DNA of 62,961 bases, counting the filler, from Conidiobolus incongruus B7586 (Eukaryota): NCBI GenBank assembly GCA_000697335.1. It is 18 parts of 18 records of this genome, joined end to end, with 100 filler letters (N's around TTAATTAATTAA, not from the genome) between each part and the next. Parts side by side here need not be neighbours in the genome. Positions count along the whole stretch, not along the records: positions 1 to 12,484 come from JNEM01003702.1; positions 12,585 to 14,356 come from JNEM01003703.1; positions 14,457 to 15,692 come from JNEM01003704.1; positions 15,793 to 17,780 come from JNEM01003706.1; positions 17,881 to 19,076 come from JNEM01003707.1; positions 19,177 to 20,244 come from JNEM01003709.1; positions 20,345 to 21,875 come from JNEM01003710.1; positions 21,976 to 23,075 come from JNEM01003711.1; 10 more parts are not named here. One strand, given 5' to 3'. Position numbers and translations under genes: made by a program. The notes beneath the pieces are model-generated. The model saw only the letters and a program-made list of their open reading frames with translations, was not told where the DNA came from and did no database searches. Numbering within the stretch: position 1 is the first letter of the stretch; each line of letters starts with the position of its first letter. This document shows, in pieces, positions 1-62,961 of this stretch.

Positions 1-765
1 CTTTATTTAAAAGGAATTATAAAGAAGGTAAATTTAGTTTAATCTAACATTTTGATTTATATTTAAATAAAAGATTATATATATAGATTTAAGATTCATC
101 AATTATAATTATTTATTATTACAGCTTAAGTTTCTAATAGTATTTTAGTAAATTTTGTTTAACAATAGCTATTCTAACTTTTTTTTAAGTTTGGGTTAAA
201 TTATAAGATATTTATTTTTTATTTTTATTTATTAATTTGAGTTTAAATTTTAATATAAATAAAATAATTATAAAACTAATATCAAAATATTTAGATGATT
301 CTTTAAATAAAATAAAAAGGTGTTTTTTAATATATTTTTTCACTTTATTAATAATTAAAAAAATAATAGTTAAAGTTAATCTTTTAAATTTTAGCAGGTT
401 TTAGATAGTTTTTCTATTAATTTTAAAGTAGTTTACCTAACAATAAATAGTTAATTTAGATAATACTTTATTATCAAAAGATATTTATAAATTCTAAATA
501 ATTTTATAAGGTTATTGTTAAGTTTTACTAACACCAAAATAAAAAACTTTTGATGATTACTATTTGGTTTAAGTATAATTAAATTAAACAATCAATTTTA
601 AAAAGTTAATTTTTTAATCAGAAAAAATATAATATATATATATATGTAATTTAAAAATATATAATCTCTTATTTATTTTCTATATATCTGTTCATTTAAC
701 ACTAATAATATGTTTGAAAAATCAGAAATTAAAAAATTTTCCATTACTTCAAATTCAAGGTAATA
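1..765 (-). mobile_element. Mariner (D,D34D) family copy, 5' part with one TIR, hypermutated; truncated by window edge
   Basis: Colinear with the copy at 5386-6668. Ends in the TIR-like ttccattacttcaaattcaaggtaaTA (739-765). The minus strand reads as stop-riddled N-terminal mariner transposase sequence. Confidence 0.85.
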
Positions 766-1661
766 ATTATAAAATATTAATTTAATTTTATAATTTATAT
801 CAGAATTAATTAATAAATATTAATATTTACTATTAATAATTTATATACTTACTAATTTCAGTATTTATATGTGATAATCATTCTATATATTCAATTTTAT
901 TTTTTCAAACCAGCATAGTATTTTTATTATAAAATTTCATTATTATCTTAAAAAATTATATAATTTTTAGTAAGAGGTCATTTATATATGTTATTAATTC
1001 AAATTCAAGAATGTGATAAAGTGAATAAATCAATAATTAATAATTGACCCAACAATCAATTATAATTATAATATTCAACGGTTCAATTATTTGAATAATA
1101 TATCATTTTAAAATTATAGTGTATATTATAATGAGCTAAATGAGCAAATTTTTGATTTTAACTTATGCAAACAATTTAATATTCTATTATATATAAAATT
1201 AAATTTACCTGATTGGATTGTACTTGCTTCCAATATTATCACTCCAATTCACATATTAATCCGCCTATCGAAGCGTTCTAATATTTTATTTAACATTAGC
1301 TGTTCGCTTCAGATATACTAACTAATTTTTTACAATATTAGTTCACCAGAAGACAATTATTTGGAAAACTTTCAATTTTGTAATTCATTACATTGGAGTG
1401 ATCTTCTCAAAAATGTGAATTGTTGGATAAAAAAAAATATTCATCTTCAATCATTAATTTATCAACAGATTATATCAGATTTGTTTAATTATTATCAATT
1501 ATTTTATTTTCATTAAACGTATTGGATATTTTTTTAGTAAAATATAAATATAAATATAAACATAAAATATATTTAGTTCAATCTTTATTATAGATAAAAG
1601 AATATGTTAGGTGAAAATCGTAAATATTAAATTATAAATTATCTATATGATAATTATATTT

Positions 1662-2879
1662 TTAGCATGATGGGGAAAGAGTTTGCTTCAAATCAATCCA
1701 TCCTTCCCTGACACCAAGTAAGAAATCCCAATCGGGACTGGCCTCAGTTCTGAAGTTCCAGAAGAACCAGCCTGATCCACTAGTCTCATATACTGCCATT
1801 TGTTGCCTAGCAAATGACTTCAAGAATTCACGTTTTTCAGCATCATATTCGCCAATGTTATTATGAACTTGGCATTTGCATGTGGGGCAAGCGGGGGTGC
1901 TATCGGGAAGTGTGCCTTCGTAGCGAGATCCCTTGTTAAAACCATTGAGCCATCTGGCACAGTCAGTATTGGCAAGAGAGAATTCCCCAACGACAGTTCG
2001 TACAGATTTGTTGATTTCCCCAAGGTCAGCCCTTCTAGTACAAGGCCTGGCTAAGTGTTGAGCTAAAGTTTGCTTCTGATCATCATTGCTAAACACCTGA
2101 TAAATATGTGTGTCTAAAATAATATTGGTCATTCCACTGCTTGCCAAAAAACTCCACTCAGACAATGGTCTGAAGGCATCATGCAAAACAATAGTAATCG
2201 TTGGATGCTTCTCACGGATAGCGGCATAGGCGTCGGTATAGAACTTCCTCAAACGATTCAAATCTAGGCCCCAAAAGGCTGGTTCATTGACCAATTCAAT
2301 AGCAGTAACAGTTCCATGGAATTCAGGAGTATTAAAATAACTAGCAAGACGAGCTAGGGCTTCAACCACTCTTGAGATGTTTTCTTCACTTGAAAACCAT
2401 GTAATATCTCCACGACGTCCGCTATTGTCAAAGCCATTCTGAGAGCCTGGTACAGCATGTAAATCCAAAGTCACTTGGATTCCGTGATTTTTAGCCCATC
2501 TGGCGGCTTTAACAAGATAAGGGAAGGATCCATTGACGAAAGGCTCATTCTCTCTATAGCTAATGGCCCAATAGCCAAAGGGAATACGGACATTGTTAAT
2601 TCCTGCGCTTGCCAATTCGGCAATGTGAGATTCAGTAACCCAGCTATCCCAATGAGCCTTTAACTTTGTATAGGCAGTCTCTTTGCCTAAAACTTCGCAA
2701 AATGTGTATTCATCAACTGGTTCAGGATTTTGGCCAAGATATGGATCGAATAAACTGGGAGTAATCCAGGGCTCAAGAACCAACCACCCACCAAGATTAA
2801 CACCCCTAATCTTTTGAGCTACGACAGGGCCCATAGTAAGCATAGAAGCCAGGGATAATAGTGGAGAGAATAGCTTCAT
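1662..2879 (-). CDS. EXG1: Secreted exo-1,3-beta-glucanase, glycoside hydrolase family 5 (Exg1-like), 405 aa, intronless
   Basis: Hydrophobic N-terminal signal peptide. Motifs RGVNLGGWLVLEPWITPSLF, RIPFGYW, DLHAVPGSQNGFDNSG, acid/base NEP, DTHIYQVF, nucleophile GEFS and GWFFWNFRTE. Confidence 0.95.
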   Translation of the reverse strand: MKLFSPLLSLASMLTMGPVVAQKIRGVNLGGWLVLEPWITPSLFDPYLGQNPEPVDEYTFCEVLGKETAYTKLKAHWDSWVTESHIAELASAGINNVRIPFGYWAISYRENEPFVNGSFPYLVKAARWAKNHGIQVTLDLHAVPGSQNGFDNSGRRGDITWFSSEENISRVVEALARLASYFNTPEFHGTVTAIELVNEPAFWGLDLNRLRKFYTDAYAAIREKHPTITIVLHDAFRPLSEWSFLASSGMTNIILDTHIYQVFSNDDQKQTLAQHLARPCTRRADLGEINKSVRTVVGEFSLANTDCARWLNGFNKGSRYEGTLPDSTPACPTCKCQVHNNIGEYDAEKREFLKSFARQQMAVYETSGSGWFFWNFRTEASPDWDFLLGVREGWIDLKQTLSPSC

Positions 2880-5385
2880 GTTGCTGATAGGAAATAGGAA
2901 TATTAAATAATCAAACCACTCAACGAATATGAGAGTGAGATTTATAATAATTAAAATAAACGATCTAGTTGATGAGATTATGCCTAGTTATATATGATTT
3001 TTTCCAGTGAAAATTTGGATGGAATTAATTGATTAATTAAGCAACTCATAATGAGTGAGTGAAGATCAAATCAACAATTATGACCCAATTTATTTAAACA
3101 AACTTAGCCTTATAATGCTTGATTCAATACCTAGACAAGTAGCCTATTCAAAATAGACCGAATATTCTGTCAATTAAAATTTTAGTGTGTGGAGTAGAGG
3201 ATTATCCCCACATTTCAACCTGATTAGAATAATTATATAAAGTATTTTCACTCTCCTTACAACCATGTTCAACATGTAAATTCTCCAATTTATGCATGCT
3301 TTACTTTTTAATGAAATAATAAACCAAATAGATTTTTACTGGTTTAAACAATCTGACAAGGATTAAAAGGTATACTATTTATAGGTGTACGTGTACGTCA
3401 TTTAAATCATTAGAGATTGTTCATATTTCCAGGAACAAGGACATCCTTGTGACTTAAAAAATGGTATATGAGTGTATATAAAATAACCTTGGATCAATAT
3501 ATAGGATGAAGAGTATGTCTTTTTAATGTAAATAAAATGAATAAATAAATTATCATGTATTATTGATGAATGAATTTGATATTAGATTTCCATCTCTGTA
3601 TTAAAATTTCTTCAATGTGACATATTGCTAAAATCATACCATGTTATAATGTAAATATAGTATATTTATATTATACAGCCTAATACTGATTAAATTTAAG
3701 TTGGGAAAATATCATATTATATTAAATGAGTGCTTGTCGTTGACATGCTTAAATAATTATAACTTCAGCACATTTGATTCCTTAATATAATTTAAAGAAA
3801 ATATCATTATCAATCGATAAACTTGATTAGATTATTCTACATAAATGATAAATTATACGAAATTAAGATAAAAATGGGACTCAAAACATGTCATATAATT
3901 TTGTATACCCTATTTTGGAATTCAATTCAAATCAAATTATGCTTTTTAATAAATTCAGTAATTGAAATATATTTGAAATAATTGAAATTATTTATATTCT
4001 CATTTTCACATAATTGATTTTTTAATTAATTAGCTTCATCAAGCATATATTACTTTTAAGTATTCTTATATTTATTATAATTATTACTGAATTATTTCAT
4101 AAGGATTATGAAATGATTAATATTTTACTTGTTATTTGATATTACTAAATTCGGAATTTATTTGAAAATAAATTAGTCAGAAATGTTCTTTTTGAAATTC
4201 CTTGATTGGAAAATAATGTCGTTAATTTCACAGTTACTATATGCCTAAGACTTGAAGATACCACGTTATTGCTCTAATATAGAATTGATACCATATATTC
4301 AATACTGTAGCTTGCTGATATAAAATATTGGATCAATTTTTCATGTCAAGGGATTTATTTACATATTTTAATGAAATGAGGAAACGATAATTTAATCTAA
4401 TGTAAAATCGTGGATCTTTGGCATGAGATTAAATTAGTTGTATCATAATCATTCCATCTAATTACCAAATCTAACAGTTGCCACAGTTATTGATCAAGAA
4501 TTCCAATCTATAATATGTAATTATACATTAATCGATTAAAAGCTATTTGTCTCCATTGCAAATATTATCTATCTTCAAATGAATATATCCATAGTATATT
4601 TGTATCCTTCATAGTTATAGAATAGCTTTAAAGTATATTCAATTAATCATTTAAAACTAAAAAGGTTAAATTCAAAATCTCCTAATTAACATTTAGTTTA
4701 ATCAAATATTATCCTTACAAATATCCTAATTTTTTAATTAAGGCCAAAAAAATTAATATTTCAAAATTTGTTAATATAATTTTCTGGTTTCAAAAGTTTT
4801 AGCAATGAATTCACATCAAATTTAAATTAGTATTATCAATTAATAATTTCTATCGATTGCTTTGAAGTAAGGTATATATTCAATGATATTTTAAACTATA
4901 TCATCGGAATGATGTAATTTGACTTCAATATATATCAAGGTTTATAAATAATATTTATTTGAATTTTTTTATTCACAAACTTTGTAAAAACGAGTTTGAT
5001 TGATAATAGTAACAGCAAGTAATTATATACAAATTTTGATGAAATAATCTATTGTTATTAGTATTCTTTAATAGTTATTAAAATCTACTCTTATCCCAAT
5101 TTAGTCTATCATATTGAAATATTTCAATTTCCTAGTTATTGTTTTAAATCTCTAATTTATTAAATATTTAAAAAAATTGAGAAAGATGAAAAATAAAAAA
5201 TTGCCAGCATATTTTGAAGCAATTTGAGAATTTAAGTTAGAACTATATGATGTTTTTGATAGATTGATAGAAATAAAAATTAATAAAACTGGAGTAACAA
5301 ATTATTATAACCTGGATGCAAAATCATTAAAGGAAATTAACAATGAGGTATATTATTATTACAACAATTATGGTATTAAATAAAC

Positions 5386-6668
5386 TATTACTTTGTAATT
5401 TAAATGATAGGGATTTTTTGTGATTGAAAAAAATAAACATATTAATATATAAAAAGTAAAAGTAAATATATAATATAAAATTAATAATTTCTTTTATTTT
5501 TAATTACTTTTTGTTATACTTTTAACAAAGTTTTAATATTTAAAAAATAATTCTTTTTATTAAAGATTGAAATTTAATATTTTATAAACTAATTAAATTT
5601 TATAAAGTTTTTTTATAAACTAGTTTTTTAGTTGTTTAAAACAATTATAATTATATAAGTTATAGTTTAAAAAATATATTAGATATAGTAGTTTTTTCTA
5701 GTTATTTTTAATTAGAAAGTTTCTTACAATTTTAAATTTATGTATTTTATAATTATTATGTTAAATAATAGGTTTTCTTAAATTATATTGAAAATATCAA
5801 TTAGAAATAATTTTATTTAAAAAAAATATAAAGTTTATTATTAATTAATTTTTTTTAAAAACTAAATAAAAATAACATATGCTATTATAATTTATTATAA
5901 CAATTAATATTCATTTATCAATAAAGTATTTATTTAAAAAAATTTATAAAGGGGGTTGATTTAATTTAATTTAACACTTTAATTAATGTTTTAACAAAAA
6001 ATTATATAAAAAAATCTAAGATTTATTAATTATAATAATTTATTATAAAAGTTTTGGTTTCTAGTTATACCTTAGTAAGTTTTATTTAACAATAACTATT
6101 CTAACTTTTTTTTAAGTTTTAGTTAAATTATAAAGTATTTATTTTATATTTTTATTATAATTAATTTTAATTTAAACTTTAATATATATAATATAATTAT
6201 GTAACAAATATTAAAGTATTTTAATAATTTTTTAACTAAAATAAAAAAGTATTTTTTAATATAATTTTTTACTTTATTAATAATTGAAAAAATAATAGTT
6301 AAAATTAATCTTTTAAATTTTAATAAATTTTAAGTAGTTTTTCTTTTAACTTTAAAGTAATTTACCTAATAATAAATTAGTAATTTAAATAATATTTTAT
6401 TACTAAAAGTTACTTGTAAATTTTAAATAATTTAAAAGGTTTGTGGTTAAGTTTTACTAATATTAAAATAAAAGACTTTTAATAGTTACTATTTAGTTTA
6501 AGCATAATTAAATTAAATAACCAATTTTAAAAAATTATAATATATATATATAATTCAAAACTATTCTTTTTCTTATTTGTTTTGTATATATTTTTTAATT
6601 GAAATTAATAATATATTTGAAAAATCAGAAATTAAAAAATTTCCCATTTCTTTAATTCTATAGTAATA
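5386..6668 (-). mobile_element. Full-length mariner (D,D34D) copy, ~1279 bp plus TA target duplication, hypermutated and non-coding
   Basis: Left end TA|ttactttgtaatttaaatgataggga and right end ttcccatttctttaattctatagtaa|TA form imperfect ~28-bp TIRs. The length is typical of mariners and the interior is colinear with the other copies. Confidence 0.9.
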
Positions 6669-7230
6669 TCATAATTTATATTTAATAATTTAGCATTTTT
6701 GAAGTTGATATCTATAATTAATAATAAATATGAATAGAGCTTAAGATTGTGATTTTTATATCTGATTAAAACTAGTTAATATTTTGTTAAACAATATAAT
6801 CAATAAATATAATTAAAATACTATATCACATTTCTATATCTGCAATAATAGTAATTTTTTTATACTTTTATTTTAAACTAAAATGATATTCACAATTCCA
6901 AATTAAATATATATTAATTCCTAATCTGGCAAAAAGATCAATTCTTAATTATATTAAAAAATCAAAATTTTAATATATCATGAATTAAAAAAGATATACT
7001 CAATTCATTTAATAATCATTGAATCAAAACTAATTTGAATTTTTTATCCATTAAATTTAAAGATTTAATTGAGTTTGCAAAAATAATATGAAATCTTAGT
7101 GTGTTAATTAGATGAAGAGGTATAATTTGATTGAATGACAAAGTAATGTAATTTTAGATATATGAGAATAGATTAAAATATAAATAAAAAATGAAAGTAA
7201 AATTGATTCATATTCAGTAAATTTTAGATA

Positions 7231-10200
7231 TTAAGTTAAGTAATCGTCATTATAGAAAAGCTCATTATATGATGTTTTTTCAAATCCAACTAAAACATTA
7301 GGATTCCTATTAATCATATCGTGTACTTTTAAAGCTGAGGAATTGGTAATTAATGCAGAAGGTATTTTGATAATTTCGTTGACTTTTTTCAAATAAGCAA
7401 CTGCTGGGAAGTGATATTTATCCACATAGCTATGAAATATCACTCCAATCGCTCCGGCTAGTTGTAAATGATAAACTTTCTCTACAAATGTACAGTTTCC
7501 TCTGGGCACAATGACAAATTTTGATTGTAATTTAGCTGAAACTGATTCGGGGATTTTGGAGCATCCATTTAAATCCTTGGGTAAGATTATTAAACTTTTC
7601 ATAGGAAATGATTTAGTAGCAGGAGGACCAAAGTTAGATAATGCAGCTGGAATAGAAGAGATACTTTCATCAGCATCTCCAACTAATGGCTTGACACTCA
7701 TTGCTGCCCACTCATTTTCACTATCAGGAGGTACAACAGTAGGTTTCCTTTGAAACTGATCAGCAGCCAATTTTAATAGTTTGAAATTTTCAACAATTGA
7801 TCCGGTATAGTTATCACTAGTTTCATTTGATATAGACTCTAATTCATCAGATTTGACTGGCTCAGAAGCCTTTGGTTTTTTCAAAAATTTATCTGCGTAA
7901 GATACTGAAGCAGGGATAACTGATTTTGTCCTAGAATTGGGATTGGCAGGAATATCATACGTCTTTTGAAGTGATAAATATTGAGCATAGTAAAAATCAT
8001 CTCGATTCGTGATAGTAGAATAGACGAGTGGGTCTTTTTTAAAGGCTGGACAGGTGTTAGGCCAGGACAGTAGCATGGGAGATTGCTTAATCGTTGATGG
8101 ATTTTTGAACCTAGAAGGAAGGAGTAGAATGTGTCCCTCTAAAGTTACAATATCAGAAATTTTGAAAGAATAATACATATAAAATGTTACCTGTATTAAA
8201 AACAGCAGAGCTATCTAGGCGATTAAAAATATTGTCTATAAAATACTATTAGATATTGTACAATAATCAAATCAAATATATACTTGTATCAAACAAAAGA
8301 TAGAGATATTTTAATGTTTCACTTAGGAAAAATGACTCCATGCGATCATCAATACTCATCTTGAGTACATTTCTGATTGAACCATAGCCACATGGTAATC
8401 TAGTATTGTTCTGAAGATCAAATAGCATCATCTCTCCAACTTGAAGATAAAAAGGGTCTCTTGTTGCCTATATAATAGTTATGTAAAGTTCATATTTTAA
8501 AAAGAATGATATAACGCTACTTGATATAAATAATAATTAGATTCAAATAATTCCGGGCGAAGTGGATAGTATAAAATAGAGGGTTGACCAGTTGAAAGAT
8601 CGTAGCGCTCGGGAATTGCACCATATTTTTGCCATATATTATAATAAATTAAATGTGTTTTAATGGCGCCTTCAAGATCACCAGCAAGAGCCTAATTATG
8701 ACTGAAATTAAAGCAATAATGACATTTAGGGTCTAGTGAAATTACCTGCATTCCTGGTAAAAACGCTGATAGAGAATCAATCCAAGCATTATTTAAAACA
8801 AGTTGTTTTGAGTTCACATTCAAATACAAATGTCCTGATTTATCTCTTATAAGATTATAAAGTGAAGAGTAAGATTGATAAAACATATCCATATATTGAT
8901 TGTCATCGAATAAAATAGCAGTTTTCAAGAGATATTCAAAGAATGAATCAAGACCAGCTCCAACTCCAGTCATTGAATTTAGCCACTAAATTATAAATTA
9001 ATTAATTTTACTTGTAACATAATATAAGTGATTTACTTTGCCCTTTCTAAGATCAATTGTACAGCCAAATAAGCCATTTTCAAATTTCATCGACCAAACT
9101 TTCATTAAAGCTTTTTTTGCAGCTTTCTAATAATTTCAAAAATTCAAATAAAATGAAAATTACGAAATACTCAATTTTTACCTCGTATTTAGGATCATTT
9201 GTCAATCTACTAAGCGTACCGAATTCAAGCATTAGCGTGCCTACCCCAGCTAAACAAGTTTCAGATGTCTCTCTTTTAACTAAGCCATGTTTGAGATTAA
9301 TCTAATTGAAAGTTAATAGTGTTAAGTATATTCATTGAAATTCGGGTAGTTACTCTTGCAAATGGAATCCCAGTTGGAGATTTGTAAAATGCTGGCAAAA
9401 GTCTATCTCCTAGATCTTTGGCCAAGTTAAGAAGCTCATCTTTATACCAAGGCAGGAAAAATCCCAGTTTTTGATCGGTAGCTAGTAGATGAGCAGAAAG
9501 CTAAAACCTCTTGAATAAATGAATTTGAAAATTATTAACAAATATTTAATTACCAATCCTCCTAGCATTCTAATTGTAACTTCAAATACTTGAACTTTAC
9601 TGTTGACATTAAAATTTACGTCTTTGATGACAAGCTTTACAGCATTTTCAAATCCTTTATAATCATCCATAATCTTTGATAAATACTAAGTTAAAATTTC
9701 TAAATAAATCATGTTTATGTTTAATTTACAGCTAACGTATCTAAAGAATCTACTAGAGTCAAAGCATAATTGCCTCGAACATCATTTACTCCAACATTTT
9801 CACTATTTAAAATAAAATATCAAAATTAAATTCACAATAATATAAATATTGAAATTACAGATTTTCTTTTAATCTCTTTAATGGTTTACACGTCATTGGA
9901 GCGACCTAATATTAGAATAAAACTTAAAAAAATATTGTGATTAAAAAAATTATCATTACTTCATCAGCTGGATAGCCGTGTTTAAGATAACTGTTATAGC
10001 TATGGTAAAACATTTCCTAAAATTATCGATTTATTAAATATATTACATATAAAATAATAATAATGATTATATCCAAATCAAGTTATACAATATGAATAAT
10101 ATATAAATTTAAAAAAAAATACCTTGACTTCATCCCTAAATTCTTGAATTAATTTCACAAAATTAAAATTATATTTACCATTATTTCATACCTTAATAAC

Positions 10201-10283
10201 AATCTTCTCTCTTCGCTCATTCCTTGAACTGATATGATCCAAGTGACTAGGGGTATAATGAATATTCCCCATGATATAATCAT
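7231..10283 (-). CDS. EDEM/Htm1(Mnl1)-like GH47 alpha-1,2-mannosidase with C-terminal PA domain; multi-exon (roughly a dozen short introns)
   Basis: Spliced by eye: ATG at 10283, signal peptide [21 protein letters not shown], then [33 protein letters not shown]|, [79 protein letters not shown] and FNTE|GHIL. The last exon holds the PA motif [27 protein letters not shown]. First exons: 10283-10192, 10135-10123, 10016-9960, 9905-9859, 9802-9730. Confidence 0.9.
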
Positions 10284-11175
10284 GATAGAATATTAAATAT
10301 TTATATTATTAATGTTATTTATTTTTTTTATTAATATTAAATTTTAAATAAAATAATACTTTAATTAAAAAGATTAACTAATATTTATAAAATATAGTGA
10401 GGTCAATATAAATATGGGTTTATTAAATATAGGGAATAAAGCTAAGTTTTCATGAGTTGTAATAATTTGATTAGATAAATTTTGAATTGATTTAGAAAAA
10501 ACAATGATCAAATTGAAACATAATTAACTTTTTCCTTGATTTATAAAAATAAAACACATATTTATAATTTGCAATATATATTAATATTGTAGCTATATAT
10601 ATAGGCTGGAATATTAAACTGAATAATATATATTATACACAATAATATTAAGGTATAACTAAAATTTTTATACTAGATGAAATAATTATAATTCGATTAT
10701 ATTGATATTATTATTTTAATCTTAGTATAATTAATCAATATTTTTTAATTCCTACTTATTGTTTCATTATAAGATATTAAATATCATATATAAACAAATC
10801 TTTATCCATAACTAATCAAGTAATGCTATATATATATATATATATATTATAGATAATTTAGATTTAACAGTTTTCTTAGTTTTGTAATCATTTCTTAGAA
10901 TTCCAACCTGATTATAATTCAGGCTAAAATTGAATTAAAAAGTTCTTGCAAATAGGTTTTATAATATCATAATTATTTAATAAATATAATGCATTTAAAA
11001 TTTCATTTATTATAATTTAGAAATATATATATTAATCAATCTACTCAATTCATTCTATTTAATCAAATATCAAAATAAATTCCAAAAATATATTATTACT
11101 AACAGTTGTTAAAATTAATGCCTTTATCCCATACATTGATTTATATGATTTTAATTTTATAAGCACATATTTAAA

Positions 11176-11440
11176 ATAAATTGAACCAACACCTTAGCAA
11201 GTCCTTAAACTGCTAACACCACTCCATGCCCCATAATACCATTTACAATCCCCTCCCACTCTTGAGTATACTGTTATTACTTTATCCCTAATAACTCCCA
11301 ATACAAACAAAACCCTTAACTCTGGAACCGTACCTTTGGGTGGATCCCACAAGTTACGGATCAATATACTCTGCAAAATATCGCTTTTATTCGTCCTTAG
11401 GTCTAATAAAAATCTTCTTCATTCATAAATTGAACCAACA
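11176..11440. repeat. 233-bp GC-elevated insert flanked by an exact 16-bp direct repeat (ATAAATTGAACCAACA); candidate short retroposed element or structured RNA
   Basis: The repeat occurs at 11176-11191 and 11425-11440. The interior is much more GC-rich than its flanks, contains several stems, and has AATAAA at 11405 followed by TTCTTCATTC. Confidence 0.55.
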
Positions 11441-11465
11441 AGTTGAAAAAAATTAATTCATTAAA

Positions 11466-12005
11466 ATGTCTAATAAAGAGCTTCAAATATTCAATAACGA
11501 AATGTTAAATCTATACCTTTATTGTAATGGCAAAAAATATCCATCACCATTCAAGAACTCATCAATGATTATTGATCAACTCAAGAGCATTGAAAAAAAA
11601 CTTTTTCCAAAAGGAGAGCAGATGGATTTTACTAAAGAGCTCAAGTCAAATAATTCATTCCTAATCTATGGAACAAACAAGCTCAATCAAGAAGCTAAAG
11701 ATAAAATAAATCCAATCATAGCGTATTTAATCTATCAATATAATCCATATGATAGGATATATCGATTAATCAAAGTTGGAGTTGATTCTAAGAATCAAGG
11801 AAAAGGATTAGGAACTATATTAATGAATACAATGATCCAATTAATTCAGCTCAAAAACCCTTCATTTCAAATTCAATTACATGTTGATCCTAATAGAGAA
11901 AATGCAATTAAATTATATAAGAAATTCAATTTTACAATAGAAGAAACTATAGATAATTATTATGGAAACAGTAGATCAGCTCATTTAATGAATTATATCC
12001 AATAA
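11466..12005 (+). CDS. GNAT-family (RimI-like) N-acetyltransferase, 179 aa, intronless
   Basis: Acetyl-CoA-binding motif A VGVDSKNQGKGLGTILM. C-terminal LHVDPNRENAIKLYKKFNF...DNYY...AHLM is typical of RimI/NAT-like GNATs. Confidence 0.88.
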   Translation: MSNKELQIFNNEMLNLYLYCNGKKYPSPFKNSSMIIDQLKSIEKKLFPKGEQMDFTKELKSNNSFLIYGTNKLNQEAKDKINPIIAYLIYQYNPYDRIYRLIKVGVDSKNQGKGLGTILMNTMIQLIQLKNPSFQIQLHVDPNRENAIKLYKKFNFTIEETIDNYYGNSRSAHLMNYIQ

Positions 12006-12484
12006 ATTATTTTTAATATATTTCAATTATTTATGAATTATATCCTATTCTGATATTTTGAATTTGAAATTGATAAATATCTGAAATAATATTTTAAATA
12101 ATTCAATATATTATGAAATAATTTTTTATTTTGATATAATTAATAGTATTAAATAAATTTTCATATTACAGCTATTAGGTTTTAAAGTATGATATATAAT
12201 TATTGAAACTAGAATTTACTCAATTAATATTTTTAATGAAAATTTTATTGTAATTTTGATAAAAATGATAATAATAACAAAGATATTAATTTAAGGTTTA
12301 ATTTTCAATATTAATAATATATCAAAATCACAATCTATATATATTTTTAATAATAACTATATAATTTATTCAAACAATATAATATTTTTCTGCTTTTGAA
12401 TTTATGATATAAATATAATAGGAAGATATTAATTCTTTAAGCTTAATATATAATAAAATTTTATTTTTATATTTATTATTAATT

Positions 12485-14356: not shown

Positions 14357-14485
14357 NNNNNNNNNNNNNNNNNNNNNNNNNNNNNNNNNNNNNNNNNNNN
14401 TTAATTAATTAANNNNNNNNNNNNNNNNNNNNNNNNNNNNNNNNNNNNNNNNNNNNATTATTAATCAAAGTTTTTATATCCTTTA

Positions 14486-17880: not shown

Positions 17881-19070
17881 CAAATATATATATTTAATAT
17901 TTTTTTGATTAAAAGAATAATTTTTTAAAATTAATCATTTATTTAATTATATTTAATTTAAATAAGAATGATTAAATTTTTTTCTATTTTAGTATTAATA
18001 AAACTAAGCTATAAACTTTTTAGAATTATTTAAAATTTATAAATAGCTTTTGGTAATAAAATATTATCTAAATCAACAATTTATTATTTAATAAATTATT
18101 TTAAGATTAAGAAAAAAACTATCCAAAATTTGTTAAAATTTAAAAAATTAATATTATTTATTGCTTTTTTGATTATTAATAAAATGAAAAAATATATTAA
18201 AAAACACTTTTATTTTAGTTAATGAATTATCAAGAAAATTTAATATTAGTTACATAAATATTTTATATATATTAAAATTTAAATTAAAATTAATAAATAA
18301 AAATATAAAATAAATATATTATAATTTAACTGAATCTTAAAAAAAGTTAAAAAAACTATTACTAAATAAAATTTACTAAAGTATAATTAAAAACTAAAGT
18401 TTTTATATTAAATTACTATAATTAATCAATCTTAGATCTTTTTATATATTTTTTTATTAAAATATAAATTAAAAGGTTAGATTATATTAAATTAACCCCT
18501 TTTATAAATTATTTTAAATAAATATTTTATTAATAAATAAATGTTGATTATTATAATAAATTATAATAACAAATGGTATTCTTATTTAGTTACTAAAGAA
18601 AAATCAATTAATAATAAACTTTATATTGTTTTTTTAAATAAAACTATTTTTAGTTGGTATTTTCAATATAATTAAAAAAAAACCTATTATTTTACATAAT
18701 AATTATAAAATATATAAAGTTAAGATTATAAAAAATTTCCTAATTAAAAAATAACTGGAAAAAACTACCATATCTAGTATATTTTTTAAATTATAACTTA
18801 TGTCATTATAATTGTTTTAAGCAATTAAAAAATTATCTATTAAGAAAAAAATTTTTGCAAGAAAATTCAATTAATTTTTAAAATATCAAATTTTATTCTT
18901 TAATAAAAAAACAATTTTTTAAGTGTTAAAACTTTGCTAAAAATATAAAAAAATTAAAAATAAAAGAAACTATTAATTCTATATTATATATTTTTTTATT
19001 TTATATATATCAAAGTATTTAATTTTTTTCAATTATAAAAAATTCCTATTATTTCAAATACAAAGTAATA
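17881..19070 (+). mobile_element. Mariner copy with 3' TIR, hypermutated
   Basis: Reads KPIILHNNYKI...NNWKKLPYLVYFLNYNLCHYNCF around 18680-18820. Ends ttcctattatttcaaatacaaagtaaTA. Confidence 0.88.
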
Positions 19071-49454: not shown

Positions 49455-51099
49455 AGCCCATTTAGGCCAGTAGTTCTTATGTCATGCAATATTGTCGTCA
49501 GCCTAAAGTACCATGTGATCGGGAGAAGCCATTCTGGAAGCAGTGCATCCATGCAGGAATATGCATTCAGTATACTCCAGTCAAAGTAAAATCTAAATCT
49601 AAATAAAAATACTTGAAATTAATAATGCCAAGTCCAGAATCAGGAAGTGATGAAGGGTGGAGTTCATCAAGTAGTAGTTGGGAGCCAAGCTCAGACTCAA
49701 GCGAACTGTTAACCATTAAAACAATTCATCCAAATTTACCAATATTCAAATGGAGCGAAGTAGTAAATGAATCAACACAAAAATTGATTAAAGCGATTGA
49801 TGAAACCCAACTGGTCCTCTTAGTAAGTTATATTCAACTTATACCTAAGATTTATGGTATACTTCACAGTTCATATTTAATGATGTTAATGATAGAATTT
49901 CCTTGTATACTTTATAGTATACTAGAACTTGAAGGCAATTATATTTCTGAAACACAAAACCCGGATAAATTGCCAATAAAGATAACCAATGACAATGTTA
50001 TGGAAATAGCAGACAAGGCCATGGAACTTCAACGCGAAACAAGAAAAGGTCACCCTGTACTTGGCGTTGCCTATTCCAATCTTACTTTTTTATATTTTGT
50101 TGAACAATAATTCGAGTTAGGATGGTGGAATGCACGATTAGGGTGTAAGCTTGTTCAAATAATCTGTTTAGAGAGAATTGTTGATAGTTCTAATGAATTA
50201 ATTCCAATCGATAACCCCAGTGCTCTAGATAACGAAAATAGAACCCAGTCTTGGTGGGAAATTTACTTACAATATATTTCATTTGGATTACTCTACGACC
50301 GCCCATGATATTTCCAAGATTATGATCTTCCATTCTTGACTCCAATATAATTTCAACTGAAATGCCCTGTTTATTACCTCCAATTCCATCAACCTTATCA
50401 TACTGTTTGGACCAAGTCAACCCAGAGAGTATGACATCACAGTACACTGGAATTACAAGCATTGAAACATCCACCAAACCAAGTGAATATTGAGAACTTT
50501 TTAATTGTCCTTCAACACAGACTTAAACTGTTCAACCAACCTATGAAGGACCCCAATTATCATAGCGTTAAAAATACTCAATGGCACCTGGAGTACCAAT
50601 CTCTATTAATTTAATGCAGATAATGGATCAATTATATAACAAAGCAATTTTTTCATAAATCACCCCCTTCAAAGTGCTATTCTTCCTATCAATATTCATT
50701 TGGATCAAGTGATTGTAGCTATGATAATTAATATGATGATAGATGATATAGTAATTTTGTTAGAATACAAAAATCTTCAATTGCCGTCCTTAATCTCGCA
50801 AATAATTTAGCCCAATAGTTTTTCAAGCAGCTATTTACAATTCCAAACTCTATCAATGGCTCATGTGTTATACCGATGTCACAATGTCTTCGTCAAAATA
50901 AATGCAATTTCGAGTTGTATCTTATTTTTTTTATCAATGCACATTACCTCCTTAGGCACCAAGTTTGATTGGAATTGCCAAAAATGAAATCATCAAACTA
51001 AATACAAAATTTTCAATATTTGTCACACATTGACCGAAAATAAAAGAATATTTTCAGCAAAAGATAGATATGATAATCAAAAAAATCAGTCTACGCTAA
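49455..51099 (+). pseudogene. Pseudogenised tandem paralogue of the 44461-46110 Zn2Cys6 factor
   Basis: Colinear throughout: PVVLMSCN/CRQPKVPCDREKPFWKQCIHAGICIQYTPVKVKSKSK*, IHPNLPIFKW, EFPCILYS, MEIADKAMEL, and end YFQQKIDMIIKKISLR*. Frameshift and Cys->Trp in the zinc cluster, stops at ~49604, 50108 and 51031, plus further frameshifts. Confidence 0.9.
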
Positions 51100-54000: not shown

Positions 54001-57000
54001 NNNNNNNNNNNNNNNNNNNNNNNTATATTATTTTAATTATTTATTTTATATATTAAACTATTATAAAATGGTTATTTATTCTTAACCAACATAATTTATT
54101 AACTTTTAAATTTAACTATTTGAAAGAATAACTGAATTAACCTAATATCATATATTATAGAATTAATAATTCAATTATTAATTATATTATGATATGTACC
54201 TTAAATCTATATTATCAATATTCAAATTATTTTTTTTTGATTTCCTTATTTCAGTATTTTTATAAAATTTAATAACAAAATAAATCATATACTTTATTAT
54301 ATATATTTATACCATCACCATATTTGATTTCAACATTAATATATATTTTATTTATTATAACATATATTGAAAAAATTAATTCATCTTGATTTTTATTTTT
54401 TTGATATATAATATTCCAATTTTTAGATTTAAACTATATAATATTTGAATAAATAAATGAAATATCTCTATTTAATATTAAAACAAAGTCATAATCCAAA
54501 TTTAATAATCAAAAGATTATCATAAAATATTTGGATTATTTTATTGAATAATTGTACTAAGTAAAATATTTAAAATTCATTAATATTATTACTTTTGTTT
54601 TCAAATTTCAATTAAAATTTCATTCAATTGTTTATATTAATGAAACAAATAAAATTGAATTATTTTTTATCAAATCTAATTTTATAATTGATTGTTATTT
54701 TAATTTAATTATTTATCAAATTAAGATTTTGTACTTCCTATTATTACTCAAAACAAATAATATAATTTTTATTTTAATTTCAAAACAACTTGGATAATTC
54801 ATTAATAACCTAAATAACTATTTGAAAATCAAATAATTTAAATTTTTAATAGTAATAATATTTATTTCAATATAATTTTTCATATTGTTTTCTTATAATT
54901 GATTTTAATATAATATGATATTTTGTAAATTATATGACAATTTTAAATTTTGGAAATATATATTATTATGATAAATATATACTTTAAACTATGTTTAAAT
55001 AACATTTATAGTGTTATTTTATAATTATTTATTTCATTATCAAAATCAAATTATAAATTTAATAACAATTTTAATTATTTGTATCATAAATTATTTCATT
55101 ATTATTTTTCAGTTTTGATAATATTTTTGTGATTAAAACTTTATGCTCTATATAATTAGAGGAATATTAAAAACCATCAAATAAATCAAAAACTCGGTAT
55201 ATTAAGTTTTAAAATATAAGTGTCAATATTGATAAATAGGTGGAAAAAATATTCAAAATCATTTTAATACAATTATAGTTCTTGAATTGAAATAATGATT
55301 CAATTTGAATTACATATAAATAAATAATAATAGAATTTATGATATCAAATATATATATTTATTCTTTTCGAAGAAATTATAAATTGTTAAAACAATTTGA
55401 ACTAATTTGTAGAATTTATAAATATATATTTAATATTATTATTCAACTAAATTTGCAATAAATAATTAACCAAATTTGGAGTTTTAATGATCATTAATAT
55501 TGTAATATATTGACATTGATATTAAATTAATTAAATTTATATTTAAAGTAAACTTTACAGTATATTCAAAATCAGGTTTATTTAAAAATATTATGAAATA
55601 TAGTATTCATATTCAATGATTTATATTGATATTTTAATTACTTTATAAATTACAAAATTATTCATGATAAAATCTCTTTATATAGTGTATTTATATTTGA
55701 AATAGTATATTATTTGATCATAAAATCAACTTATATATTGATTATCTCATTATTTTTTTTCAATTTATTATATTTTATTGGAGTAGTTATTTGATATATT
55801 TTCATAATAAAACCAATACATCCAAAAATCAATATCTGATTTTATTTATAAATTATACCATATACTCATTATGTCTTGTGTTTTAAAAATATAAAGTTCA
55901 ACTTAATAATAACACTTATTAATAATTTTTTTTGATTTTATAATATTATAATTGAATATGGATAAATAGAAAATATATTGATTGGATATTTTAATTAATA
56001 TGGATCATTGAATATTAATAATAGTTATGCATATATATCATGCATAATATTTTAATAATTTGTATTTTTTAATTATATGATTCTTAATATTTTCTGATTT
56101 TTTGCTTAAACAATTTTATGAATAAATTACGAATCTAAATTAATAGATATTCTTCAATATAATAAATAAATAATTAATTATAGAATATTTAGAGAAAAAT
56201 GATTATTGGTAATATTATTGTATAAAAGTACAGTTATAGTTAATTTTTAATTTACAGATATATTGAAATAGGTATTCAAAAAATAAATATATATAATAAA
56301 AATTTTTTATAAATTTTATAAAAATATATATTGTATAAATTTAATAAAATACAAATTTTTAGATTTAATTATTGATAAATTATAAATTACAAGGTTAATT
56401 TAATAATTCTTTTTTAATAATCAAAATAATTATCGTAGTACATTCTTTTATAATTATATAAAATATTAAATACCAAATTTTGTCAATTAATTAAAGTTAT
56501 AAAAGATATTGATTTATTTTCATATGGTTTAATATATCTTTTTTAAATATATATATTAAATAAATGAATTCAAAAAAATAGTCAATATTATTATAATATT
56601 ATTATAATATTGATTATATCAATTATTTGAATTTAAAATACAGTTCATTAATTATATAACTATCAAAGTAAATATTAAATTTTCAACATAATATTTGTAA
56701 ATTGAATATTATACATAATATTTTATTCAATACATTATTTTAAGTCGATATAAAATGAAAATTTCTATAAGTGCAATTTGATCTTAATTTATTTTTTCTT
56801 TATATTTTAAATATTTAATTTCAAATAAAAATATTAATAATTAAATTAAGCAATATTTTATAAAGTTTGATTATATTATCAATTTATTTGTTAGCTATTT
56901 GAATTTTTTTTAAAATAATAAACGGACTATATTTATTTTATTATAATTTTAAGAATTAATATTATATTTTTACATTTTTAAAATTAAATATCTAAATAAT

Positions 57001-57254
57001 AATGGATGTGAATATCTTTTAAATAGTATTACAAATAAATTCTAACTTGTTTATTTTTAATTTATTTAAAATAATAAAATCAAATTCAAAAAATTAAAAT
57101 AATAAAATATTATACATTAATATGTGTTTTTTAATTGAGATATAATTCAATATTNNNNNNNNNNNNNNNNNNNNNNNNNNNNNNNNNNNNNNNNNNNNTT
57201 AATTAATTAANNNNNNNNNNNNNNNNNNNNNNNNNNNNNNNNNNNNNNNNNNNN

Positions 57255-57620
57255 TCAAATTTTAAAGTATATTTTTAAAATTTAAATTTAGTTTTGTTAA
57301 ATATAAAAAGCTAGTTAACATAATATCTTATTAAGTTAAAAAGGTTAAAAAATCAATATATAGATATAATAAAGATTAATATTTTTATCAATATCAAAAC
57401 GTATAAATATATCAATTATTTCCAAAATTTTTTTATTATTAATATATTAAATAATAATTCATTAAATTTAACTGTATTTATTAACTTATAAAAACCAATC
57501 ATTAAGTCAAAATAAAATATTTTTTTTACAAATAACTTAATTAATGATAAAAAACAATATACCAAATTAAAAATTAAATTTAGAGATATTTATTAATATA
57601 AAAAACTATTTCTAATTATA
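57255..57620 (+). mobile_element. Degenerate 3' end of the Tc1-family element
   Basis: Aligns by eye with ~62520-62850 (end of the ORF and start of the right inverted repeat). Boundaries are approximate. Confidence 0.55.
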
Positions 57621-57659
57621 TTTATTCATTAATTAATTAAGATATTAATAATAAAAATA

Positions 57660-58474
57660 TATTTAAGTAATAAATTTATTGGTTTTTGATGATAATAAGA
57701 AAATTAAAACTGAATATATTTACCATTGGCTTTTCTAACTTATTTATTTTATAAGGTATTGAATTAATTAATTATTTATACTAAAAAGGTTTAATTTTAT
57801 TATAAGCTTTTTGAATATATATTTAAAATTAATTTAATTTTTTTTTGTAAAAGAAGTTTTAATTTCTTTTTTAATTAATTTTAAAATAATTTAATTAAGT
57901 TAAAATTAAAAATTAAGAAAATTATTTTATAGTTATTATTTTGTTAATTTTAAGTTATTTAGAAATAAAAACAATAATATAACAAAAGATATTATTTTAT
58001 TAGAAAATAATATCAGATTTATTTAACCTATATTAATTAATAATTATTTTTAATTTAATATTTAAATTACTCTATTATTTTTTAATATTAGTTCCCTAAT
58101 TATTTCTAAAAAAATTCCTTATATCTAAAGATATGATATATTTATAAATAATAGTAAACTAATTATATTATTTTTGGGTTATAATAATATATTAGTAATA
58201 TGGTTGTTTTTTTATATTTTAAAATATTGAGCATTATTATTAAAATATTTAGATTCTATATTAAATTTATTAAAATATTTTCGGTTTTATCAGATTATAT
58301 AGCCTTATTTTAGATAATTTTAATTTAAATTTAATACCGACATTTAAATTATTATTTTAAAATGGGATTATTGTAATTAAATATATTTTTTATAAAAAAA
58401 ATTAGTAATATCTACTCTAATAGAAACTATATATAATAATATTAATATTCATTATTATTATTATATATTTTTAA
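57660..58474 (-). mobile_element. Degenerate Tc1-family copy in inverted orientation, tail-to-tail with the previous fragment
   Basis: The reverse complement gives ...LINSIPYK...RKANGKYIQF* and matches the family blocks taatataggttaaataaatctgatattatttt and tagggaactaatatt. Confidence 0.7.
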
Positions 58475-58574: not shown

Positions 58575-59098
58575 AATTATTATAATAAATTATAATGGTA
58601 TATTCTATTTTTATTTAATTTTTGAAGGAAAATCAATTAATAATAAACTTTTTATTATTTATTTAAATAAAATTATATTAATTAATATTTTTAATATAAT
58701 TTGACAAAACTTATTATTTTATATAATAATGATAAAATATATAATTTAAAAGCTATAAAAAATTTACTAATTAAAAATAACTAAAAAAAATACTATATTT
58801 AGTATATTTTTTAGATTATAACTTATATAATTATAATTGCTTTGGTTAATTAAAAAACTAGCTTATAAAAAAAATTACCATTGGAAAATTTAATTAATTT
58901 GTAAAATATTAAATTTTAGTCCTTAATAAAAAAAATATTTTTTAAGTATTAAAAGTTTGCCAAAAATATAACAAAAAGTTATTAATAATAAAAGAGATTT
59001 TTAAATTTATATTATAGATTCATTTTTATATATTATATATTAAAATATTTATTTATTTTTAATCACAAAAAATTCCTATTATTTAAAATAAAGTAATA
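58575..59098 (+). mobile_element. Mariner 3' half with TIR, hypermutated
   Basis: EGKSINNKL...YFLDYNLYNYNCFG*LKN*L. Ends ttcctattatttaaaataaagtaaTA. Confidence 0.88.
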
Positions 59099-61154
59099 AT
59101 ATCAAATATTCTTTTATCTTAAAAATCATTATTAATTTGAAAAATTTTGAAAATTTGAAAATATAAAATCAATACTGTTTTAAAGTAATTATATTATAAA
59201 TATTTGATAATTGAGTAATAACTTAAATAATTATACTAACCAAAACAATATTATTGTTATAATCCATCAATCATTTATTTATTTCTAATCAAATAACAAT
59301 ATAATCAATTACAAAATACTTTCAGTTTTAAATTGATTATATCATAATCATAAACATTAATTCAAAATCAAATAAAACCGGAAAATTAATAGGGAATATT
59401 CATTACATAATACTTTAGAAAAATTATAATTAGTAAAAATTCTTAACTATTGTTCTGATTCTTTAATTTATCTATATCTTCAAGGATATTTGGTATATTA
59501 TTAAATTTAACAAAATTGGAAAAATGGAATAATTATTAAATTTTTTTATATTTAAATAATTAAGTATTAAAATATATAATATCTAAAATTATAATAATCA
59601 ATATATACTGTATAATTATATTTTCATTATATATTAAAATAAAATTATACTTAGCTTAAATTATATTTAATAAATTAAATTGAAATCAATAAATAATAAG
59701 ATTTATTTTCAAAATGACTAAGTCATTTTGAATATTTTAAATTTATATAAATATAAATATTATTAGATATTTATTTGTTTAACATGCATCTTTGATAAAA
59801 ATATATTTTTGATTTTGAATCGTGGATGGTATAAATTATTTCATTTCCTCTTTATAATTTTATGCGATTAATAATAAAAAAATCAAATTAATTAATACTG
59901 AATTAAAATGGCTTAATACAAATTATTTTTAATTCATATCTTTATTTCTAATTTAGAATATTTTTGAGTAACAATTTAAAAACGCAATGATTAAAATATT
60001 CGTACTAAGTCTATTCGAATGTTGTATACTTAATAATGATATTCATAAATTCAAAATGACATATATTATCAATCAGAGCTTATATTCTAATTAAATATCT
60101 ATTTAAAAAGTTAGAATCAAATTTGCATGATCAAGGATTTATGGTAAATAGTTTTCCGCAAAATATTATAATGATGTATTAGTAAAGCACAATATTATTA
60201 AATTTAATAATAATAGTAATTTGGTTTTAATTTATCAAAAAATATTATTCAACAAAAAATTAACAATTGTGATTGGTAGTATATAATTTTTTTGACCAAG
60301 ATATTTAGTTGAAATCAAATATTTTAATAATTCTAGTATTGTTATTTTCATTTTCTTTACCTTTTATAGTATCATATCATATCATATCATTATTATAAAT
60401 TTCACATAATTTCATAATACTAATAATAATTAAATAAAATTTATATTAATAAAAATGGAAATAATATCTTAATATCAAATTATTAATAATATTTTATCAT
60501 TTTTAGATTCCGACTAAATATAGTAGTCGAACTATCCAGTTTTTCACATATATAATATATTTATAAAATTATTAATCTATTTTTTATTTTTTTTATTTAA
60601 TTCGTTCAAATATTTGATTTTTTGATATTGATTTCAAAAATTATGTTTCAAAAATAAAGGGTTTTTTGAAAATTAGAATTAAATTCTAATAAGAATATTA
60701 CTCTCATTATTTTTGTAATTTAAGTTTATAAACAAAAAAAGTTTTTAACGAAATATAATACTTTAAGCATTTTAAATTTGAATATTATATTGGAAAACTA
60801 ATGATCTTAACATTGCAATATGTATCAAGTTTCTATATTATAATAAATTAAAAAATGATTAAATTTGTTATTTATTGTTGGTTTCAATTTTAATGATATT
60901 AATTTATAGATTATAAAATATTAATTCGATTTTCAATATGAAAAATGGCAAATTATTAATTTTGGAATTATTATATATATATTTATTAATATTAACATTT
61001 TGTTTAAAAAATAAGAATATCAAAATAACCTTTGGTTAATAGATTTATTATAATNNNNNNNNNNNNNNNNNNNNNNNNNNNNNNNNNNNNNNNNNNNNTT
61101 AATTAATTAANNNNNNNNNNNNNNNNNNNNNNNNNNNNNNNNNNNNNNNNNNNN

Positions 61155-61229: not shown

Positions 61230-61306
61230 CAAAATAATAAAAGTTAATATTCTTATTAATAGTTTATTAAATATATCTAAATAAATTTTTTTAATATTAA
61301 ATAATA

Positions 61307-62884
61307 TATATTAACTTGCAAAAATAAGTTAGAAAATTAAATATATATATATATTTTAATTAATAACTAATATAATTTTATATATTAGATTACTTGAAAT
61401 TATAATATATAACTAAAATATATTATTTGATAATAAATGAATATATTTAGATATATTTAGTAAACTATTAGCAAAAATATTAACCTTTAAAATTTAACTA
61501 AAATAAGTCATAAATTTGCAAATTTTTGAGATAAAGGGATTTATTTAACAATATATAACCATATCTTTTTTCTTTCTTTGTTATTGTTTTATATAATATT
61601 TTACAAATTTATTAAACTTTTTTTATTAGTATTATTATGCTTAAATCCCTCTTTAAAAAAAATCTACTTATATATCAATCAATTTTATAAAAAAGATAAA
61701 TCAACTTATGATATTACTAGAATTATTAGTGTTAGCTAGTCTATTATAGCTAGGGTTATTAAGAATAACAATAAAAACACATTTAAACTTAGACTTAGGT
61801 ATATTAAAATCATAGATGAATATGATAAGAAGTATATTTATTAGTTAATTAATACAGGTAAATGTAATATTACTGTAGAAATATAGCAGGAACTATAAAA
61901 CTATGCAGGAATATTAGTTAGCATTAATACTATTATATGTACTTTATATTAGTATAGATACCACTTATATCTTAAGAAAAAACACCCTTTAACTAAAAAA
62001 ATCTTATTATATAATTAGGTGGGAGTTTAAATATTACTATTAATATTAATCTAAAACTAATTAAAATAAGGTTATTTAGTCTAATGAAACAAAAATATAT
62101 TTTAATAAATCTAATAAAAAAGCTAGATATTTTAAAAAAGATAGAAAATTATTTTGTGACTATTATATTAATTCTAACTAAAATTATAATAATAGGTTAA
62201 TTATTATTTAAGGATATATATTATCTTTAAGTATAAAGTATCTTTGTAAAATTAATAGGGGAATTAATACTGAGATATATTAAAATATTTTAAACAATAA
62301 ATCAAAAAAACTATTGAATAATATAAGTTAAATAAATCTGATATTATTTTCTAGCAAGATAATACCTTTTGCTATATTATAGCTTTTACTATTAAATAGC
62401 TTAAAAATAATAAAATAACAGTTATAAAGTGGTTTTCTCAATTTTTTAACTTTACCCAAACAAATATCTTTGGGATTAATTAAAAAAAGATATTAAAGCT
62501 TTCCCTTTAATAAAAATATAGATCAACTTTAGGAATATATTTAAAAAACATAGAATAAGATTAACCCTTTTTAATATAAAAAATTAATTAATTCTATACC
62601 CCACAAACTTAAAGAAGTTAGAAAAGCTAAAGATAGATACACTAGGTTTTAATTTTTTTTATCACCAAAAACTTACAAATTTATAACTCACTTTAGGTAA
62701 AATTTAAGTGTTTATATTTTAACCAATTAATAACTAAATATTATAATTTAATAATATATATTATTAATAAATATAATAGAATTTGATTATTTAATTTAGG
62801 ATTATGACATTAAATATTAATCAAGGTATTAATAAAAATATAAATGTTTTTAATTTTATGACTTATTTTTACAGGTTAGTATAT
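61307..62884 (+). mobile_element. Full-length Tc1-family (DD34E) element with IR/DR ends; best-preserved copy, still hypermutated
   Basis: ATG at 61637 (MLKSL...), then KVI*SNETKI (~62068-62097), III*GYI, LCKINRGINTEIY*NIL, IIF*QDNTFCY (~62343-62375), KWFSQ, and end RKAKDRYTRF* (~62652). Left tattaacttgcaaaaataagttagaaaatt is the inverse of right aattttatgacttatttttacaggttagtata. An inner repeat aaaataagtcataaatttgca lies at ~61500. Confidence 0.9.
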
Positions 62885-62961
62885 TTAAATTATATATTAT
62901 AATTTCAGTTAATTTAATATATATAACTATATTAGTTATTAATCAAAATATATATATATTT

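Follow-up and report, generated by a model that had tools for sequence, protein, structure and literature searches.

The transposons in a 62,961-base stretch of the Conidiobolus incongruus B7586 assembly (GCA_000697335.1; the whole stretch is called the window here) have been hypermutated by C>T/G>A transitions. We hold with high confidence that this hypermutation is real and confined to repeats. The pattern works like repeat-induced point mutation (RIP); membership in RIP as such is, judged from the sequence, a candidate assignment. The window consists of 18 contigs of 1.1-15.4 kb and 17 spacers of 100 nt (places 12485-61154), and distances that cross a spacer are not genomic. Guanine-plus-cytosine (GC) content is 10-16% in the repeats; the AT-rich non-repeat classes have 13-15%, and the coding stretches that were scored 36%. 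The signature is carried by nine copies of one mariner family (family A), two distant mariner relics, three Tc1-like copies, and one unclassified contig, as follows (CA:CT is the ratio of CpA to CpT).

1-765 (-): copy k1a of mariner family A, 5' half, truncated at the window start; 0 CpG, CA:CT 0.59
5386-6668 (-): family A copy k1b, complete (~1.28 kb) and with terminal inverted repeats; its contig also bears genes
14482-15692 (-): family A copy k3, richest in transversions, with the sole CpG of family A
17881-19075 (+): family A copy k5
19177-20240 (-): family A copy k6
21976-23075 (-): family A copy k8; C-terminal frame matches Mos1 transposase
29234-30505 (+): family A copy k10, the only copy with strand asymmetry
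30606-31910 (+): family A copy k11a, least mutated (31% loss), reference for read mapping
58575-59105 (+): family A copy k17, 3' part
28132-29133 (-): distant mariner relic, 62-65% to family A; CpA-depleted, 4 CpG
31921-32596 (+): distant mariner relic, 66-71% to family A; CpA-depleted, 3 CpG
32772-34435 (+): Tc1-like copy k12, decayed long inverted ends; 0 CpG, CA:CT 0.37
57258-58474 (-): Tc1-like copy k16, most diverged; 3 CpG
61233-62961 (+): Tc1-like copy k18; 0 CpG versus 10.7 expected, weak sub-cut-off HTH_38 match
12585-14356 (no strand): unclassified contig with the signature; 0 CpG, CA:CT 50:131, composite RIP index +0.43

At codon positions conserved among homologues, C>T/G>A accounts for 280 of the 301 changes in the nine mariner copies, which bears out the claim of a first-pass annotation that conserved codons are changed almost only in this way. 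The count covers codon positions 1-2 of residues that are conserved in >=60% of 101 aligned homologues and reachable by C>T/G>A. Conserved C/G was kept against transition at 104 of 384 positions, with 280 transitions and 13 further transversions; at conserved A/T, 439 positions were kept and seven A<>T changes, one other change, and no T>C/A>G were seen. All eight codon examples quoted in the annotation were found in place. For instance, the mariner His-Asp codons are intact at 22324 (-) but mutated at 30150 and 31521, and a Trp codon reads TGG at 18755 versus TAG at 30213; Leu-Pro-His variants occur at 22252 (-), 18765, 31595, and 30222, and the Tc1 examples lie at 62077, 62349, and 33960. 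The retained C/G differ from copy to copy, in agreement with the proposal that each copy was mutated independently and on both strands. A copy-by-strand test gave p=0.20 overall, k10 alone being asymmetric (C loss 40/124, G loss 55/106, p=0.003), and no clustering into tracts was detected among the nine copies (autocorrelation ~0 beyond 2 nt). Raw pairwise differences over all aligned columns comprise 66% transitions and 24% A<>T (5399 differences in 30195 aligned pairs), and transitions make up 46-58% of those between Tc1-like copies; saturation of transitions and poor alignment of AT-rich stretches keep the raw transition share low. Comparison of inverted end with inverted end in the Tc1-like copies was uninformative, as these ends are too decayed and A/T differences dominate.

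Confinement to repeats was assessed against a dead gene and two intact genes.

49466-51086 (+): Zn2Cys6 pseudogene, control; 8 stops and 7 frameshifts in 540 clean codons, 33% GC, not hypermutated
44461-46110 (+): intact Zn2Cys6 transcription-factor gene (Pfam Zn_clus and Fungal_trans), paralogue of the pseudogene; control and taxon marker
1662-2879 (-): GH5 exo-1,3-beta-glucanase gene, control and taxon marker, between two hypermutated mariner copies on one contig

Of 182 C/G in the pseudogene, 163 escaped transition; it also shows 22 transversions, and 14 A<>T changes in 324 A/T positions, as counted over 340 codons where the paralogue equals that of Conidiobolus coronatus, with Leu, Arg, and Ser excluded from base counts. 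Compared with the 104 of 384 kept in the mariner copies, the difference is large (Fisher p=1e-47, a value that overstates certainty since copies and sites are not independent). C>T outpaces A<>T by a rate ratio of 83 in the transposon versus 2.6 for the pseudogene, roughly 30-fold apart, and stops arose by C>T/G>A routes in 127 of 186 cases in transposons versus 2 of 61 in the pseudogene. Dinucleotide composition separates the same classes. Observed/expected CpA is 0.72 in family A, 0.73 in the relics, and 0.63 in Tc1, versus 1.13 where non-repeat DNA has 14.7% GC and 1.09 where it has 12.7%; CpT is 1.17-1.32 in transposons versus 0.84-0.87 in equally AT-rich non-repeat DNA; and CpG is 0.03 in family A and 0.14 in Tc1 versus ~0.6 in non-repeat DNA. 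The composite RIP index was positive in 15/15 repeat-like tracts and negative in 5/5 AT-rich non-repeat tracts (tracts of our own choosing). The edges of k1b are sharp, with CA:CT of 42:81 inside and 48:36 and 36:28 in the flanks. Three contigs of 11-13% GC in which we found no gene or repeat (15793-17780, 20345-21875, and 54024-57154) have normal CA:CT; thus, very AT-rich DNA also arises without the repeat signature.

All hypermutated tracts are transposon-like. The first-pass annotation extended the signature to every long repeat family, which holds for the transposon families but not for the long Zn2Cys6 gene duplicate. The gene and its dead paralogue lie in tandem, 5 kb apart, and form one long non-transposon duplicate, 64% identical, that is not hypermutated and may predate the process. 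RIP responds to homology as such, regardless of sequence; the term "homology-directed" in the annotation goes beyond what these tracts show.

The order of loss by sequence context is CpG >= CpA > CpC ~ CpT, about 2:1. Homologue-anchored counts are preferred, because private T>C gains and sites that no copy retains bias any estimate drawn only from the copies. By this measure, 18/136 CpA (13%), 34/98 CpC (35%), and 52/119 CpT (44%) were kept (site-level p=0.0005), as were 0/31 CpG, at 4 uncertain sites. Context rates are 2.0 for CpA versus 1.06 for CpC and 0.83 for CpT, and the corresponding test on Trp codons gives 1.7 versus 0.6. At nine Trp codons, of which five are conserved among the aligned homologues and four were assigned on the evidence of the copies, we counted TAG 27, TGA 4, TAA 26, and TGG 8 times (p=3e-5), the CpA-type G being kept in 12/65 and the CpC-type G in 35/65; at Gln codons, C was kept in 39/115. 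Family A contains one CpG where 35 are expected, and direct evidence that CpG was lost faster than CpA is weak (0/53 intact at 7 candidate pairs versus 2.7 expected). The effect of the 5' neighbour is slight, with keep rates of 0.28-0.45 that become nearly flat once sites kept in a single copy are dropped. Depth-weighted shares at ancestral C/G sites in run X3, which are not allele frequencies, were 16-30% at several CpA and >70% at most CpC/CpT sites, with exceptions both ways. The CpA bias noted earlier stands as a preference of about twofold, but it is not exclusive, and CpG was lost at least as thoroughly; to call it a RIP-type hallmark was an overstatement, the bias losing significance at the strictest conservation cut-off. 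Decay dominated by CpG, which the annotation had named as fatal to its proposal, fails to suffice as the only cause: losses at non-CpG cytosines run to 56-87%, and CpA shows depletion instead of gain.

Judged from its genes, the source is a Conidiobolus-like Zoopagomycete of the Entomophthorales, outside the Dikarya, as the annotation had supposed; it is close to C. coronatus but distinct from it. The best named matches of the glucanase are to Entomophthora muscae (55%), Massospora (53%), and Neoconidiobolus (50%). A tree built from the window protein plus 34 of the 120 listed matches, picked to span named taxa, puts it in a 100/99 clade that holds only Entomophthorales and unnamed rows, with all 8 Dikarya rows outside. 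The only homologue of the Zn2Cys6 gene among 4519 candidates is from C. coronatus (63% identical). These markers exclude an origin in the Pezizomycotina, where RIP would have been ordinary. Because two hypermutated mariner copies flank the glucanase on the same contig, the repeats belong to the Entomophthorales host. Ascomycete contamination was considered and ruled out, as contig 1-12484 carries both hypermutated copies and the Entomophthorales glucanase.

Family A is a mariner family by its Mos1-like transposase, its inverted ends at 5386 and 6668, and its length of about 1.3 kb. The match to Mos1 transposase has E values of 3e-4 to 8e-4 (alignment headed by the k8 C-terminal frame), and a full HMMER search returned 101 homologues at E<=0.001, the best ~30% identical over full length; a word-based search with the k8-headed C-terminal alignment found 0 homologues among 7994 candidates. 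Pfam gave no match in 8 translated N-terminal fragments; of 5 other transposon fragments, 2 had matches, all below cut-off. The Tc1-like class of k12 is assigned from motifs read by eye, and the k12 fragment that was scanned had no Pfam match. Contig 12585-14356 was matched by neither the family A nor the Tc1 profile, and no second copy was found in the window; it is probably a further hypermutated transposon relic. Within k8, at 22505-22545, there is a 19-nt tandem duplication. Pairwise identity between family A copies is 76-86% (35 pairs). Copies k1a, k8, k10, and k17 form a subfamily marked by a few shared transversions, but the family A copies do not share their C/G losses. The claim that copies keep their length and most of their frame survives only in part, since most are cut by contig ends, each has 2-10 indels, and the element is seen end to end only at 5386-6668. 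The family is large: 12,549, 15,627, and 12,139 contigs from three runs align to the single copy k11a at 80% likeness. Runs X1-X3 come from one sample, possibly the assembly's own, and so do not count as independent support, and copy number cannot be read from summed depth; in run X5, 0 contigs aligned to k11a at 80% likeness, which is no proof of absence.

Mutational load is only partly tied to age. Private transversions range from 0.7% (k1b, k10) to 5.3% (k3), a 7-fold span, and C/G loss at sites kept by >=2 copies from 31% to 61%, the C>T load spanning about 3-fold. Copy k1b, for example, has 8 private transversions in 1115 columns and yet 54% loss, versus 58 in 1099 columns and 60% loss in k3. 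A strict clock, in which load is proportional to transversion age, was rejected against free loads (likelihood-ratio statistics 38.2 and 43.6, 8 degrees of freedom), and C/G loss was not significantly correlated with A<>T alone (Spearman 0.35, p=0.36, nine copies). The 11 CpG sites in repeat-like tracts all fall in the 4 most diverged tracts, with none in the other 11, as would be expected of a process that ignores old copies.

To account for these observations, we give about an even chance to a methyltransferase-linked, RID-independent mutator that is aimed at repeats and acts mainly while copies are young. Copies would be marked as repeats through heterochromatin, small RNA, or pairing; their cytosines would be methylated or engaged by a predicted DIM-2/DNMT1-type enzyme rather than RID; and deamination of these cytosines, on both strands and in all contexts, would leave T fixed in their place. 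Such a mutator would likely be active mainly while the copies of a family are young and alike, faster than a steady clock, and would fade as they decay. We infer an enzyme of this type because of the all-context, two-strand pattern, the precedent of Dim2 in Zymoseptoria tritici, the restriction of RID, homologues of which are reported from Pezizomycotina only (as stated in the relevant section of PMC5751038), and reports that early-diverging fungi possess DIM-2 (PMC7862722, in the part concerned). A wider proposal, that Zoopagomycota own a RID-independent, homology-triggered defence mutator that wrecks young families (CpG, CpA, and less so other cytosines) and then stops, we regard as possible though doubtful; RIP-like defence would then predate the Dikarya or have evolved twice.

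Several points weigh against a repeat-directed mutator that acts early. C/G loss correlates with total private transversions (Spearman 0.75, p=0.02, nine copies), so part of the load is clock-like. A model with intercept plus slope brought no gain over the clock, although it may not have converged, and front-loading thus rests on the free model and on the CpG in old relics. The clock would break, too, if loci differed in methylation or in local mutation rate, and the CpG of old relics may be spared ancestral sites rather than regained ones. At some sites where most or all window copies have lost the ancestral C/G (e.g., 31051 and 31065), high-depth shared words in the runs still hold it; lightly mutated copies probably persist, and the defence would then not be instant. 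The CpA bias has p=0.02 at a conservation cut-off of 0.75 and p=0.19 at 0.85 (17 sites), and, as the homologues are only ~30% identical, some ancestral assignments are wrong. Finally, a single pseudogene serves as control, and some of its divergence accumulated while it still functioned.

Among the alternatives, passive decay would need dense transposon methylation in all contexts and steady spontaneous deamination of 5-methylcytosine, with no dedicated mutator. The involvement of all contexts (with the near-absence of CpG from family A), the lack of strand or tract clustering, and the tracking of transversions by loss all fit it, and the order CG > CA > CT/CC resembles methyltransferase preference. 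We nevertheless consider it rather unlikely, since the strict clock is rejected, with k1b nearly as depleted as the far more transversion-rich k3, and the oldest relics hold CpG. CpG-only decay, further, would raise CpA/TpG, whereas here CpA is at 0.63-0.73 of expectation and Trp and Gln codons were lost outside CpG. Were the process passive, it would still imply dense non-CpG methylation of transposons, in a group whose 5-methylcytosine is described in broad terms as near-undetectable (PMC13297926, see below). Genome-wide AT-biased drift of old neutral DNA might be suspected from the 13-15% GC of non-repeat non-coding DNA and from the A<>T share of raw differences. It is barely credible against the pseudogene, which has as many or more transversions and keeps 33% GC and 90% of conserved C/G, against the opposite CA:CT ratio of AT-rich non-repeat DNA (p<1e-24, family A and Tc1), and against a signature that ends at element borders. 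Neither the spectrum nor the rate in single-copy neutral DNA matches that of the repeats, a comparison that the first-pass annotation had named as decisive, and plain AT drift was rejected on the C>T/A<>T ratios given above. A cytidine deaminase of the AID/APOBEC type, acting on transposon DNA during transcription or transposition and independently of methylation, could produce near-pure C>T/G>A at conserved positions, limited to mobile elements; with the bias chiefly on the 3' neighbour and weak on the 5' side, equal strands, and no tracts seen, it is very improbable.

True RIP would combine pairing-based recognition of duplications, a sexual or fusion stage, and a RID-like enzyme as in Neurospora. 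It is favoured by sharp element edges, a load decoupled from age, the preference for CpA, the strand asymmetry of k10, and the 76-86% identity between copies; RIP has an identity limit of roughly 80%, and family A copies sit near it. RIP acts in episodes that leave strand-biased tracts, blurred by repeated rounds; here the clock is rejected, one of nine copies is strand-asymmetric, and no tracts were detected. Also in favour of true RIP, 24.2% of windows in Zoophthora radicans are index-positive, and methyltransferases with a RID-like domain layout are described as well (PMC11105155, in the sections concerned). The CpA bias, however, is just twofold, and the tandem gene duplicate is untouched, though perhaps older than the process; RID is known only from Pezizomycotina (PMC5751038, same section). 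The RID-sister orthogroup is 12-14% identical to RID, is over 1200 residues long and, in the portion of PMC11105155 that treats it, is listed only for Entomophthoraceae, and a 1,239-genome survey, in the parts that bear on this, has the signature in ascomycetes only (PMC12543289). We therefore think true RIP decidedly unlikely.

The pattern can be placed among known systems accordingly. It is like RIP, the premeiotic, RID-dependent process (with a DIM-2 branch) known from Neurospora crassa and further Pezizomycotina, in its repeat-confined C>T/G>A saturation on both strands, independence of copies, preference for CpA, positive composite RIP index, and nonsense changes at Gln and Trp codons. 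It is unlike RIP in its Zoopagomycota host, its CpA bias of only about twofold with 56-65% loss at CpC/CpT and near-total loss of CpG, and the lack of strand tracts detected here. The Dim2 mitotic mutator of Z. tritici shares the repeat-confined C>T excess and the CpA preference, needs no sexual cycle, and would be the best precedent for the putative enzyme type; it depends on DIM-2 and acts at mitosis in regions that carry 5-methylcytosine. In the results given for it, CA accounts for >98% of C>T, with CG spared (PMC8016269), whereas here CpC loses 65%, CpT 56%, and CpG is nearly gone. Transposons of Pucciniomycotina are described, in the relevant part of PMC3318451, as hypermutated at TpCpG. 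Both cases lose CpG from transposons outside the Pezizomycotina, but here the lost cytosines are mostly non-CpG, and CpA/TpG is depleted, not gained.

CpG-directed hypermutation of transposons in "some lower fungi" has reportedly been described by Clutterbuck in 2017. The mutator would not be undescribed in early-diverging fungi, as the annotation had suggested it might be: RIP has been proposed for Z. radicans from a dinucleotide index, with low, caveated levels in three other Entomophthoraceae, and the authors say that their methyltransferase candidates are not readable as RID homologues (PMC11105155, in the sections on RIP). That proposal concerns the same order and, like ours, a positive composite RIP index in repeats; it used 1-kb windows and the dinucleotide index only, as its relevant sections describe, whereas here we have homologue-anchored substitutions and a pseudogene control from a Conidiobolus-grade lineage. 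RIP-like mutation outside the Dikarya is thus contested between this index proposal and the ascomycete-only survey. Table S1 of the survey includes a single Entomophthoromycetes genome, the repeat-poor C. coronatus, and its supplement 14 has no row under a C. coronatus label; supplements 13 and 15-19 were outside our search and may bear on the RIP call (PMC12543289). A 2026 review gives early-diverging fungi broadly near-undetectable 5-methylcytosine, in a passage that does not mention Zoopagomycota (PMC13297926). Our literature search found no substitution-level study of Conidiobolus repeats; subscription papers (e.g., Clutterbuck 2017 and Bewick 2019) were beyond its reach and may hold lineage data. 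The window supplies controlled, substitution-level evidence for a repeat-confined C>T mutator in a Conidiobolus-grade fungus. Screens based on k-mers could miss such a process where non-repeat DNA is equally AT-rich. An active, RID-independent mutator would suggest that RIP descends from a DIM-2/DNMT1-type ancestor, and would offer a test system.

Three further genes lie in the window. At 7231-10300 (-) there is a multi-exon gene with a PA domain by Pfam, whose upstream exons presumably belong to an EDEM-type mannosidase of glycoside hydrolase family 47, which they resemble. The gene at 11457-12005 (+) encodes a GNAT acetyltransferase (Pfam Acetyltransf_1). An intron-rich superfamily 2 helicase gene occupies 23858-26213 (+), with a weak Helicase_C match from the one exon scanned; from its motifs, we take it to be Irc3-like.

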